Shown here: positions 3,968-14,089 of the stretch, one piece after another
Layout: each line of letters begins with the position of its first letter
Position numbering within the stretch: position 1 is the first letter of the stretch
Assembly: GCA_036398075.1 (NCBI GenBank)
Contig: DASWHT010000265.1
Location: forward strand, 1-29,820
Direction of reading: 5' to 3'
From: Candidatus Binatia bacterium
GTDB lineage: Bacteria; Desulfobacterota; Binatia; UBA9968
DNA length: 29,820 bases
Made by a program: the position numbers and the translations under genes
The notes under the pieces: model-generated
Seen by the model: the letters and a program-made list of their open reading frames with translations, nothing else
What the model was told of the DNA's origin: nothing
Databases searched by the model: none

Positions 3968-4147
3968 GCAGTGAGATTCTTGATGGCTTGACGAAAGTCT
4001 AGGGATCAATAGGGCTCTGGCGGAGTTAGAATCAACTTTAGCGGTCGTAATTGGACGGCGACAGTCGAAAAACTGTCACCAGGTGCAACCTGCGTCCGTG
4101 TTTTCTTGCGTCTGACTAGTTCGCAGGCGGGAGGCCGGGGTGGCTCG

Positions 4148-4163
4148 CGTCAAGGAAATGACA
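4148..4163. promoter_or_regulatory. Candidate sigma54-activator (FleQ-box-like) site
   Basis: CGTCA-AGGAAA-TGACA palindrome between two divergent sigma54 motifs; the same motif recurs at 14074 and 18920. Confidence 0.5.
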
Positions 4164-4300
4164 GCCAGGCTCGTAAGTTTCTTCATCGCCTCAAAGTGTC
4201 CCTGCGTTTCCGTCGCGCAGGAGTGCAGATTTGGCTCACCGCGGAGTGGAGGACAGTATCGTGATCGAGCTTTTACCGGTGATCCAATCTAGTATCACCA

Positions 4301-4316
4301 TGGCAAGCTTATTGCG
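4301..4316 (+). promoter_or_regulatory. sigma54 promoter of the chemosensory operon
   Basis: TGGCAA-GCTTA-TTGCG with exact GG-N10-GC spacing, about 90 nt before ATG 4409. Confidence 0.7.
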
Positions 4317-4408
4317 TCAGCTCCATTAATTTGATTCCAGCCATGCTGCCTAGAGCGCGACGCCAGGAAGCCCGTGGCATATCGTGGGGGTGAAAAGGCG
4401 GTCTAGCG

Positions 4409-4792
4409 ATGTCCAAAAATAGGGGCAACAAAAGAATTCTGTTGGTGGATGATTCGGAAACCGTTCTCATGTTGGAGCGGATGATTCTCAAGGGGGGCAG
4501 TTACGAACTGGCGATGGCAAAAGACGGCAAAGAAGCGGTTGCCAAGGCGCTGGCGCTGAGACCGGATTTGATTCTGATGGACGTGATCATGCCGAAGATG
4601 AACGGGTTCGACGCGATACGCGAGTTGCGTCGACGCCCCGAGACCCGGTCGATTCCCATTCTTATTGTAACTACGAAGGGGGAAGAAGAAAGCATGGAAA
4701 CCGGCTACCTGAGCGGTTGTAATGACTACATCACCAAGCCCATTGACAGCCTGGAGTTGCTCACCAAGATACGAAGCTTTCTTGGTACGTAA
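4409..4792 (+). CDS. Single-domain response regulator (CheY-like receiver)
   Basis: ILLVDDS, LILMD (phospho-Asp) VIMPKMNG, VTT, YITKP; no output domain. Confidence 0.92.
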   Translation: MSKNRGNKRILLVDDSETVLMLERMILKGGSYELAMAKDGKEAVAKALALRPDLILMDVIMPKMNGFDAIRELRRRPETRSIPILIVTTKGEEESMETGYLSGCNDYITKPIDSLELLTKIRSFLGT

Positions 4793-4821
4793 GGCATTCA
4801 AACCTGAGGATAGTTAAACTT

Positions 4822-5583
4822 ATGGCAAAGGCGCCAAGAAGGAAGAGGATCTCTAAAGGGTGGCCCAAAACCGCCCGGGATATCCCCGCTACGCCAGGCG
4901 ATCTTGTGCCCGTGCGCAGACAAGCGGCCGCCGTTGAAGGTGAAACCCCGCGATTGCGCAACCGCGTGGCCGAACTGGAGAAAGAACTCGAACGGTTGCA
5001 AACCGAGCGTATCGACGCAGTTGTCCAGGGATCAGGCGGGGATAGGCTGTTGGCTCAGCAATTCGTTGCCACGGAGTTACAGCACGGCGACATGGCTAGT
5101 CTCTACGTCGCAAGCACGAGGCTGCAAGCGACGCTAAGAAAGCAGGAGGTATTGGCGGCTATCCGTGAAATCGTCATAAACCTGATCGGAGTTGAGGAGA
5201 TGGCGTTGTTCGAGAACCATCCTCGGACGTCGACGTTGTCGTTGATCGATTACTACGGTAATGGGTGGGCGAATCATTCCAATATCCCTGTTGGCGAAGG
5301 TCCCATTGGACGAGTCGCGTTGACCGGCGATTGCTATTTTCACGACCTGAAGGGCACTGAACGGGAGCCCGGCAATGCGAACATGCCGACGGCCTGTGTT
5401 CCATTAAAAGTGGACGGCGTGGCGTGGGGAGTGATCGTGATTCTTCGCCTATTGCCACAAAAGGACCGTCTAGTGGCGCTCGACTATCAACTTCTTGACC
5501 TCCTTTCAACTCAGGCGGGAATTGCGCTTCACTGCGCCGAATTGAGTGCCGAGCGGGCCGCGGCTAGGGAGATCATGGCATGA
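4822..5583 (+). CDS. Soluble coiled-coil + GAF domain protein
   Basis: RBS TGAGGA; basic N-tail, coiled coil (LRNRVAELEKELERL), GAF signatures (IPVGEGPIGRVALTG, ACVPLKVDG..WGVIVI, LLDLLSTQAGIAL); ATGA overlap with cheD. Confidence 0.82.
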   Translation: MAKAPRRKRISKGWPKTARDIPATPGDLVPVRRQAAAVEGETPRLRNRVAELEKELERLQTERIDAVVQGSGGDRLLAQQFVATELQHGDMASLYVASTRLQATLRKQEVLAAIREIVINLIGVEEMALFENHPRTSTLSLIDYYGNGWANHSNIPVGEGPIGRVALTGDCYFHDLKGTEREPGNANMPTACVPLKVDGVAWGVIVILRLLPQKDRLVALDYQLLDLLSTQAGIALHCAELSAERAAAREIMA

Positions 5584-6149
5584 CGCCGAAATTTAAAGCC
5601 AATGCAAACTCTACTGCTGCACGGACCTTGGTAGGGGGTTGGACGGCGTGCACCGTTGCGGACAACGGGAGACTTCGCGTGGCCCCGGATAGCGGCGCGC
5701 GGACTAAGGTGTATCTTCACCCTGGTCAACTGTTTACCGCCGCCCATCCCAGCGCCATTACAACCGTTCTGGGTTCCTGCGTATCCCTGTGTCTTTGGGA
5801 CCCGGTGCTGAAAATCGGCGGCGTCAATCATTATTTGTTGCCGTTCTGGGTGGGGGACGATATAGCATCGCCCCGTTTCGGAACAGTAGCGATCGAGACT
5901 TTGATCGAAAAAGTCCTTTCTCTTGGAGCGCGCAAGAATCGATTACGGGCGAAACTCTTCGGCGGTGCCTGTGTCATTGAGGCCTTTCGGGAAAGGAAAG
6001 ATCATGTTGGGATCGTCAACGCTCGGCTGGCTGAAAATATGTTGCACATGCAGGGTATCCCAGTGGTGGAGCGGGACCTGGCAGGACGCAGGGGCCGCAA
6101 GCTCGTCTTCAACACGGACGATGGTACGTCGTGGATCAAGTACCTTTAG
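5580..6149 (+). CDS. cheD: Chemoreceptor glutamine deamidase CheD
   Basis: YLHPGQ, TTVLGSCVSLCLWD (catalytic Cys), GGVNHYLLP (His), AKLFGGA, DLAGRRGRKLVF. Confidence 0.95.
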   Translation: MTPKFKANANSTAARTLVGGWTACTVADNGRLRVAPDSGARTKVYLHPGQLFTAAHPSAITTVLGSCVSLCLWDPVLKIGGVNHYLLPFWVGDDIASPRFGTVAIETLIEKVLSLGARKNRLRAKLFGGACVIEAFRERKDHVGIVNARLAENMLHMQGIPVVERDLAGRRGRKLVFNTDDGTSWIKYL

Positions 6150-12517: not shown

Positions 12518-12544
12518 TAAATTCGTTTGCGCCGCTGCCGATAT
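12518..12544 (+). promoter_or_regulatory. sigma28 (FliA) promoter of the cheY-cheX-like operon
   Basis: TAAA-N15-GCCGATAT, near-perfect match to the consensus TAAA-N15-GCCGATAA. Confidence 0.8.
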
Positions 12545-12597: not shown

Positions 12598-12990
12598 GTG
12601 AGCAACACAAAAGCTGTGAAAGTTCTGGTAGTTGACGATTCGAAAACAATGATTGCAATGATTGCCGCGCATCTCAAAGACACTGGCTTCGAGGTCGTGG
12701 CGACGGCGTCGAGCGGACGAGAAGCGCTGGAAAAATATCAGGCGCATAGACCGCAGGTCGTTCTTTTGGACATCGTAATGCCGGTTGAAAACGGCGTGGA
12801 AACGCTGGAGCATATCCTTCACGTGGACACCGCCGCCTGCGTGGTGATGGTCAGCTCCATGGGCACCGAAGCAGAGGTGCAGGATTGCTTAAAGAAGGGC
12901 GCCAAGAGCTTTCTGCAAAAGCCATTGAAAAAAGACCACATGCTTTCAACTCTAAATATCGTCTGCCAGGAGACCGGGGTGGCGCTATGA
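12598..12990 (+). CDS. cheY: CheY-like single-domain response regulator
   Basis: Start revised to GTG 12598 (RBS AAGGAG at 12584-12589); VLVVDDS, LLDIVMP, VSS, FLQKP; ATGA overlap with the CheX-like gene. Confidence 0.88.
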   Translation: MSNTKAVKVLVVDDSKTMIAMIAAHLKDTGFEVVATASSGREALEKYQAHRPQVVLLDIVMPVENGVETLEHILHVDTAACVVMVSSMGTEAEVQDCLKKGAKSFLQKPLKKDHMLSTLNIVCQETGVAL

Positions 12991-13844
12991 GCTCAAGATT
13001 CTTCGGTCAATACCTTCTGGAAAAAGGGCGGATCACCTCGCAGCAGCTGTCCTCGGCGCTGGACACCCAGAAGGCCGCGACGCCGCCCATCGGTATCCTG
13101 GCGCTTGAAAAAGGCTGGCTGACGGCGGAGCAGATCAAGCAGATTCTCGATCGGCAAAAGAAAACCAACTACCGCTTCGGTGAACAGGCAGTTTTGTCAG
13201 CTCTGCTCACGCAGACTCAAGTGGACGAATTACTGGGCGCGCAGGAGACAAGTCACCGAGTCTTGCTCGGCGACGTGCTGGTGTCGAAGGGCTATTTGAC
13301 CCTTGCGGCGCTGGAAAAAGAGTTCAAGGAATACGATAAAGACGAGGAAAAACTTTCTTTCGAACTTGCGGCTGCCTTCGACAAGGTGCGCAACAGAGAA
13401 CTGGTCAAGACCTTCACCGACTTGATGATGATCATGTTCACCCGTTTCGCCAAGCAAGAGCTCAAAATCGAACAGTGCGAGACCGGGAAAGAGAAGGTCC
13501 GGCTGTTTCGCTGGGTATTCTCGCAAAAGATCGCAGGCAAGAATGTCGAATTCAACTGCCTGCTCTCCGTACCGCCGAAACTTTTGCTGCACATGGCTTC
13601 TACGATGCTGGACGAAACGGTTAGCGCGCCCGACGAACTGGCCCTCGATGCGAGCAAAGAATTTGTCAACATCGCCAACGGCAATGCCTGCGCCCGGCTC
13701 TCGGAGAACGGTTTTAACTTTACCATGGAGCCGCCCGAAGTCTATGAGACAACGGCCAAACCCTATCCATTTAATGCCAAGGATGTGGTTTGCGTGCATC
13801 TGGCCTCGCCCGATGCGAAATTGGAAGTCGCCTTTGAGTTCTGA
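12987..13844 (+). CDS. CheX-family phosphatase with four N-terminal MshEN-like repeats
   Basis: Start revised to ATG 12987. Repeats with Gly at aa 7/36/65/95 (FFGQYLLEKGRIT..L..AL..Q and similar); C-terminal DASKEFVNIANG containing the CheC/CheX E-x-x-N motif. Confidence 0.82.
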   Translation: MSSRFFGQYLLEKGRITSQQLSSALDTQKAATPPIGILALEKGWLTAEQIKQILDRQKKTNYRFGEQAVLSALLTQTQVDELLGAQETSHRVLLGDVLVSKGYLTLAALEKEFKEYDKDEEKLSFELAAAFDKVRNRELVKTFTDLMMIMFTRFAKQELKIEQCETGKEKVRLFRWVFSQKIAGKNVEFNCLLSVPPKLLLHMASTMLDETVSAPDELALDASKEFVNIANGNACARLSENGFNFTMEPPEVYETTAKPYPFNAKDVVCVHLASPDAKLEVAFEF

Positions 13845-14051: not shown

Positions 14052-14089
14052 CGCATTTGAATTGACGAAGCAGCGCCAAGGTATTGACG
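14052..14089. promoter_or_regulatory. Candidate tandem activator sites downstream of the fliM sigma54 promoter
   Basis: CGCCA-AGGTAT-TGACG (14074-14089) and a weaker CGCAT-TTGAAT-TGACG 22 bp upstream. Confidence 0.4.

Follow-up and report, generated by a model that had tools for sequence, protein, structure and literature searches.

A gene for four MshEN-type motifs fused to CheX, coupled to its own cheY in a Candidatus Binatia genome, as a candidate c-di-GMP-responsive CheY-P phosphatase

How cyclic di-GMP (c-di-GMP) tunes chemotaxis, beyond braking the flagellar motor, is an active question, and two 2026 papers place CheX, a phosphatase of phosphorylated CheY (CheY-P), at the junction of c-di-GMP and chemotaxis signaling in Vibrio, in both cases via separate PilZ proteins. 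V. cholerae PlzC acts on CheX (PMC12799141), while suppressors of V. vulnificus PlzD map in cheX (PMC12887009), such that CheX is the control point in both studies. Together with P. aeruginosa MapZ-CheR1, these systems link c-di-GMP to the level of CheY-P or to motor switching in trans. Here we describe a gene in which a receptor-type module and the phosphatase are instead one polypeptide, located at 12987..13844 on the forward strand of a 29,820-nucleotide stretch (the window) of contig DASWHT010000265.1 from the metagenome-assembled genome (MAG) of a Candidatus Binatia bacterium (GCA_036398075.1). The gene is a stop-free frame of 285 amino acids (aa) plus stop, encoding four MshEN-type motifs (M1 to M4) followed by a CheX domain.

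The architecture is already known and we claim no novelty for it. Wang et al. (2016, Nat Commun 7:12481) named CheX among the MshEN partners in their main text and listed "(MshEN_N)2-CheX" from Deltaproteobacteria and Firmicutes, with Geobacter lovleyi Glov_2742 as the example (their Suppl. Table 4), for which an earlier reading of the window from its letters (hereafter the sequence-only reading) overrated how new the fusion was. Residues 1–60 and 61–119 of Glov_2742 were aligned there as two tandem MshEN_N domains, with no experiment on the protein (their Suppl. Fig. 3c). Glov_2742 (ACD96455) belongs to the same family as the Binatia protein, sharing the K-F-F-G-Q start, the four motifs and the C-terminal CheX domain. 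Our analysis differs from the 2016 account in that the predicted pairing of the motifs is M2 with M3 and M1 with M4, and in that the family is seen in many more phyla.

An MshEN binding unit comprises two 24-residue motifs and a five-residue joint, in which Arg at position 1 stacks on guanine, position 2 is hydrophobic, the backbone amide of Gly at position 3 reads guanine, Gly at position 10 makes a turn, positions 17 and 21 are Leu, and Gln at position 24 binds ribose and phosphate; in MshE, the substitutions G11L and G40I abolished c-di-GMP binding (Wang et al. 2016). Departures from this pattern can be tolerated. Wang et al. (2016) allowed Pro at position 1 in their relaxed search pattern, and PilF GSPII-B, which has Lys and Leu at this position, has an affinity for c-di-GMP of 6 nM (2 nM for a K167L variant) that is lowered when Arg is restored (PMC11731258). 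A hydrophobic or Lys residue at position 1 is compatible with nanomolar binding.

All four motifs were recovered in the Binatia protein. The repeats with Gly at residues 7, 36, 65 and 95 that the sequence-only reading described are present in the translation, and their MshEN-like assignment was borne out by the NCBIfam profile NF053729 (c-di-GMP motif, MshE-related), which matched in four stretches (E = 1.4e-20, 72.8 bits against a cut-off of 38); in the genome scan, individual stretches scored 47.3 bits (aa 6–57), 37.1 bits (aa 35–86) and 25 bits (aa 63–111). The matches to both the repeats and the CheX domain are far beyond chance. M1 (aa 5–28, 12999..13070), within an NF053729 stretch, and M4 (aa 93–116, 13263..13334), with an L-L-G...Y pattern, would form the first and second halves of a predicted outer helical bundle, and M2 (aa 34–57, 13086..13157) and M3 (aa 63–86, 13173..13244), the latter with a canonical R-F-G...Q pattern, the two halves of a predicted inner bundle, all on the forward strand. 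The long helix of M4 continues into a linker helix up to residue 132. Weak Pfam matches to FumaraseC_C, DUF2949 and DUF4388, all below their cut-offs and located on the helical repeats, were set aside as noise or distant MshEN-like similarity.

We assessed conservation of the ligand-contacting positions on 128 representatives of 50%-identity clusters, which have roughly 30% identity to the query. The Gly at motif position 3 was kept in 123, 112, 108 and 109 of these for G7, G36, G65 and G95, respectively, and the Gln at position 24 of M1 to M3 (Q28, Q57 and Q86) in 102, 113 and 118. Position 24 of M4 is Y116, in keeping with Phe or Tyr across the family (Gln in 1/128), which leaves the inner bundle with both of its Gln residues and the outer bundle with one. 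At position 1, R63 and L93 fit the Arg/Lys/Leu consensus (PMC11731258), with F5 and P34 outside it; across the family this position is Phe or Tyr in M1, Lys, Pro or Arg in M2, Arg or Lys in M3, and Tyr, Leu or Phe in M4. The most conserved motif of the fusion family is the FFG...Q signature of M1. The caveat of the sequence-only reading that the canonical Arg is confined to repeat 3 is correct as an observation, with Phe, Pro, Arg and Leu in the four motifs, but it weighs less than was supposed, since PilF GSPII-B binds at nanomolar concentrations with Lys and Leu at this position (PMC11731258). We therefore predict that the sensor probably binds c-di-GMP.

Predicted folds suggest that the motifs are paired in a nested rather than a tandem manner. 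An AlphaFold2 model derived from an alignment of 91 family sequences had a mean predicted local distance difference test (pLDDT) of 93 and a predicted template modeling score (pTM) of 0.77, and its residues 32–89, which span M2 and M3, superposed on c-di-GMP-bound MshE (5htl, residues 7–64) and on PilF GSPII-B (residues 165–221) with a root-mean-square deviation (rmsd) of 1.2–1.4 Å over 56–58 residues (identity 26–29%, Z 10.7–11.7). The pLDDT was lower in the two linkers flanking the inner pair (M1-M2 and M3-M4) but did not drop in the linker between M2 and M3. In a second model, of a homologue from Pseudoxanthomonas composti that is 29% identical (pLDDT 94.7, pTM 0.87), residues 32–89 again matched the MshE and GSPII-B bundles (rmsd 0.9–1.5 Å). 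The predicted inner bundle thus shares with V. cholerae MshE (5htl) and T. thermophilus PilF GSPII-B (8pdk, 8pfa, 8pe0) the four-helix bundle of two motifs with a five-residue spacer, keeping Gly3 and Gln24, at about 1–1.5 Å and 26–33% identity. Unlike MshE and PilF, the fusion protein has neither an MshEN_C subdomain nor an ATPase; a second motif pair is predicted to wrap the first, and the neighboring domain is CheX.

Coevolution pointed to the same arrangement. We performed mean-field direct coupling analysis (DCA) on 327 non-identical family sequences (effective number of sequences, Meff, about 190–205; a further profile-based homologue search returned almost only the same close clade and left Meff unchanged). 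The strongest coupling of the whole protein was I16-L98, between position 12 of M1 and position 6 of M4, and the top 12 inter-motif couplings comprised six M1-M4, five M2-M3, one M3-M4 and no M1-M2 pairs. Among sequences with less than 55% identity to the query, M1-M4 and M2-M3 accounted for four and seven of the 12, respectively, and over twenty random halves of the alignment, 173/240 couplings were M1-M4 or M2-M3, compared to one third expected. The M1-M4 couplings mirror the position pairs of M2-M3, for example position 24 with position 3 in Q28-G95, which are 67 residues apart in sequence. Loss of the position-3 Gly followed the inner pair, with G36 and G65 lost together in 23 sequences (odds ratio 72, Fisher P = 1 × 10−19, not corrected for phylogeny), while other motif pairs showed weak or no association. 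Members lacking both inner Gly residues (~7% of family sequences) keep M1, M4 and the Asp, Glu and Asn of CheX intact, often without Arg153 (see below), and look like a subfamily in which the outer motif pair alone is intact.

Because the fold superposition in two models, the couplings and the joint Gly loss agree, we regard it as a well-supported prediction that the four motifs fold as two nested four-helix bundles, an inner bundle of M2 and M3 (aa 34–86, 53 residues) and an outer bundle of M1 and M4, the latter predicted from the couplings. This replaces the two tandem MshEN domains of the sequence-only reading, although its expectation of an MshEN-like fold agrees with the models. If true, nested pairing would change how runs of MshEN motifs in other proteins should be read. 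Profile similarity among the four motifs showed no clear A-B-A-B pattern, and we therefore make no claim on whether the layout originated by tandem duplication or by insertion.

The C-terminal part of the protein (aa 133–285, 13383..13841, forward strand) is assigned to CheX by both profile and fold, consistent with the sequence-only reading. Pfam CheX (PF13690) matched at E = 2e-10 with 41 bits against a cut-off of 27, compared to 22.7 against 22 for CheC (PF04509). Alignment of the predicted fold of residues 133–285 with VIA-align to eight solved CheX-type chains, including 1squ and 1xko (T. maritima), 6vpw (V. vulnificus), 3hm4 and 3hzh_B (the B. burgdorferi CheX-CheY3 complex), gave Z of 18–20.8 and rmsd of 2.1–2.7 Å over 144–152 residues, with the middle domains of CheC, FliY and FliM ranking after them (Z about 10–12). 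The E225/N228 stretch is present as D-A-S-K-E-F-V-N (D221-x3-E225-x2-N228, 13647..13670, forward strand) within the motif D-x3-E-x2-N-x21-P, with P249 and P250 at 13731–13736. Among the 128 representatives, E225 was kept in 127, N228 in 122, D221 in 107, G232 in 123, P249 in 99 and P250 in 105. By direct reading, the first CheX helix (aa 137–154) has no E-x-x-N, which indicates a single active site as in CheX, unlike CheC with two. The assignment as a CheX-type phosphatase is safe at the level of sequence and predicted fold. Stand-alone CheX proteins (1xko/1squ, 3hzh, 6vpw) share this fold and the single D-x3-E-x2-N-x21-P helix; they are about 150 aa long, have no sensor and carry Thr at position 153, in contrast to Arg in the fusion.

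This Arg153 (13443..13445, forward strand), in the first CheX helix, is specific to the fusion family and centers the predicted interface between sensor and enzyme. Position 153 is Arg in 262/327 family sequences and Thr in the aligned stand-alone CheX structures 3iic and 6vpw. The best inter-domain couplings had Arg153 in common, with G36, G65, and N61 and K58 at the M2-M3 spacer as partners, all on the ligand face of the inner bundle, and the couplings W44-S223 and L45-A222 suggest that the inner bundle also touches the active-site helix. Among sequences with both inner Gly residues, 85% have Arg153, compared to 39% of those that lack both. We infer from these couplings, and from the loss of Arg153 with the inner Gly residues, that the inner pocket faces the catalytic domain, which would be the simplest path from ligand binding to changed access of CheY-P.

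Gene order identifies a presumed substrate. The upstream cheY stops within an ATGA that also contains the ATG start of the fusion gene, as expected from the coupling to its own cheY that the sequence-only reading reported. This cheY (12598..12990, forward strand) encodes 130 aa from a GTG at 12598, preceded by the ribosome-binding site GAAGGAG, and its product matches Pfam Response_reg (E = 2.9e-26), with CheY proteins as the best solved relatives, including T. maritima 1tmy and the B. burgdorferi CheY3 of the CheX-CheY complex 3hzh. Across the family, 76 loci from many phyla have room for a neighboring receiver gene; 55 of them have one upstream, on the same strand and no more than 250 bp away, and six more have one directly downstream (61/76). 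Eight representatives fuse a receiver to the protein itself, either at the N terminus (P0124, P0145, P0155, P0198) or the C terminus (P0173, P0182, P0185, P0244). Because of these linked loci and fusions, the receiver-phosphatase pair is a conserved unit by gene order. In a further representative, P0205, a PAS-HisKA-HATPase follows CheX, such that kinase and phosphatase would be one protein.

Taken as a whole, this evidence leads us to lean, with modest confidence, towards the fusion protein being a c-di-GMP-responsive CheY-P phosphatase that acts on the CheY co-transcribed with it. In the mechanism we propose, cheY and the fusion gene would be co-transcribed and translationally coupled, probably from a sigma-28-type promoter, and the upstream CheY would be the most likely substrate of the CheX domain. 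The N-terminal 116 residues would act as a c-di-GMP sensor module of the MshEN_N type, with the ligand face of the inner bundle packed on the first CheX helix with Arg153. Binding of c-di-GMP in the inner bundle, and possibly also in the outer bundle, would alter the packing of the sensor against the catalytic domain and thus the access of CheY-P to E225 and N228, such that the c-di-GMP level would set the lifetime of CheY-P and thereby flagellar switching. That c-di-GMP activates rather than inhibits the phosphatase is a guess based on the behavior of other c-di-GMP effectors, ones that suppress switching. More tentatively, and with more doubt than for the general reading, we suggest that the protein is a nested double sensor in which the inner pocket is completed by R153 of CheX, holding c-di-GMP at the interface of sensor and enzyme and directly switching the only CheY-P phosphatase of the flagellar pathway. 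If true, the fusion family would be the fused version of the Vibrio systems, with receptor and phosphatase in one soluble protein of 285 aa beside its CheY, and would offer a one-protein route from c-di-GMP to the frequency of motor reversal; as the family is large and spans many phyla, a positive result would apply widely.

Several points weigh against c-di-GMP control and the nested arrangement. In M4, Tyr takes the place of the Gln that binds phosphate, the first residues of M1 (Phe) and M2 (Pro) fall outside the published (R/K/L) consensus, and the turn Gly of M3 is replaced by Ala. PilF GSPII-A retains the fold but shows no binding even after its consensus is restored, owing to an N-cap and subdomain contacts (PMC12002112), so a matching motif and fold do not by themselves prove binding. 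The nested topology occurs in no solved MshEN protein. It comes from AlphaFold and DCA on one family alignment, which are not fully independent, and DCA does not distinguish intra-chain contacts from those between the chains of a dimer, for which reasons we keep the pairing as a prediction. Full-text literature searches found no binding or activity study of any MshEN-CheX fusion member, in line with the sequence-only reading, which knew of no biochemical study of the architecture. The MAG is 83.5% complete, and another phosphatase gene could be missing from it.

A first alternative is that the repeats keep the MshEN_N fold, bind no nucleotide and serve as a fixed interaction or positioning module, for example by docking the phosphatase at the motor or the receptor array. 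Such a role has been proposed for PilF GSPII-A, which has the same fold and near-consensus motifs and does not bind. A canonical Arg in one motif only, the lack of Gln in M4 and a nested layout unlike every characterized binder would fit such a scaffold. However, Gly3 and Gln24 touch the ligand rather than build the fold and are yet kept across phyla at about 30% identity, while the inner Gly pair and Arg153 are lost together, as expected of one functional site; furthermore, GSPII-A has His and Arg replacing both Gln residues, which the fusion protein does not. We consider a non-binding module unlikely on these grounds.

Control of the phosphatase by bound c-di-GMP should also be distinguished from an output in localization or oligomerization, for example through recruitment to FliM/FliN or a shift of the CheX dimer, with the catalytic rate unaffected. 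CheX proteins are dimers in crystals, and the fusion gene adjoins fliM and fliN. Bound c-di-GMP could also form a composite binding surface, a possibility raised for PilF GSPII-B (Neissner et al.). The couplings nevertheless set the ligand face of the inner bundle against the helix of Arg153 and place W44 and L45 near residues 222–223, which fits intramolecular control better, and we regard a purely positional output as rather improbable. Finally, it is very improbable that the sensor binds another cyclic dinucleotide, such as 3'3'-cyclic GMP-AMP (cGAMP), whether in place of c-di-GMP or in addition to it. In favor of such a ligand, cGAMP is weakly bound by the MshEN of V. cholerae, stacking residues are not the same in the two bundles, and the genus Geobacter, from which the family was first listed, has cGAMP signaling. 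Against it, the Gly backbone contacts that read guanine O6 and N7 are kept in all four motifs, and MshEN binds cGAMP with an affinity about 600-fold below that for c-di-GMP.

Homologues of the fusion protein were widespread in the representative library, with 2406 matches at E up to 0.001 and 760 (50%-identity cluster representatives) at E up to 1e-10, some of which may cover only one of the two modules. Among the best 150 matches, 127 are 260–310 aa long, most of them aligned over the whole query. Carriers include MAGs labeled as delta-proteobacterial and Binatia, Planctomycetota (including Ca. Uabimicrobium), Sericytochromatia, Nitrospirota, Acidobacteriota, Elusimicrobiota, Armatimonadetes, Spirochaetia and Gammaproteobacteria, with cultured Pseudoxanthomonas, Novilysobacter and Cognatilysobacter in the last of these. 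The cheY-fusion pair is also present in cultured or enriched organisms, namely Pseudoxanthomonas composti GSS15 (L072:3310-4852, with the homologue at 4001-4849) and, at loci L068, L074 and L030/L032, Novilysobacter viscosus, Cognatilysobacter terrigena and Ca. Uabimicrobium. Every homologue begins 3–5 residues before the FFGQ motif, which argues against a start at TTG 12885; the 319-aa open reading frame (ORF) from that codon overlaps cheY out of frame and was rejected as an artefact.

Within the window, which carries a complete chemotaxis gene set, the genes preceding the fusion gene are, in order, a receiver at 4409, a GAF protein, cheD, cheA, a methyl-accepting chemotaxis protein gene, cheW, cheR, cheB and cheY, and those following it are fliM, which begins at 14084 and is the neighbor named in the sequence-only reading, fliN, motB and motA on the other strand, a third receiver, fliL, fliP, fliR and flhB. 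The three receiver-only genes of that reading are found at 4409, 12598 and 17562. Ahead of cheY and the fusion gene we read a putative sigma-28-like promoter from the sequence (TAAA-N15-GCCGATAT, 12518..12544, forward strand), which agrees at 11/12 specified bases with the flagellar sigma-28 consensus TAAA-N15-GCCGATAA. This site would set cheY and the fusion gene apart as a late flagellar unit, separate from the cheA-cheB operon. A terminator scan detected none after the fusion gene, and the one sigma-70-like match was on the opposite strand inside cheY. Within 4822–6149, cheD is preceded by the gene of a 253-aa GAF-only protein.

The host MAG is 3.67 Mb in size and 83.5% complete, and a locus with 98% identity was found in the record of an uncultured delta proteobacterium. 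No CheZ match and no other CheX or CheC match was detected in this incomplete MAG, and the fusion gene is the only predicted dedicated CheY-P phosphatase within the assembled sequence. CheC is the usual partner of CheD, and the genome has a cheD without a CheC match, the fusion gene being its sole CheC/CheX-type match. Genes for c-di-GMP signaling in the MAG comprise at least five with GGDEF domains and one with PilZ. In addition, a second ORF (C481:3970-4371, corresponding to L081:271-672), which runs into the contig end such that its C-terminal partner domain is cut off, encodes four consecutive MshEN-type motifs, two of which are above the NF053729 cut-off.

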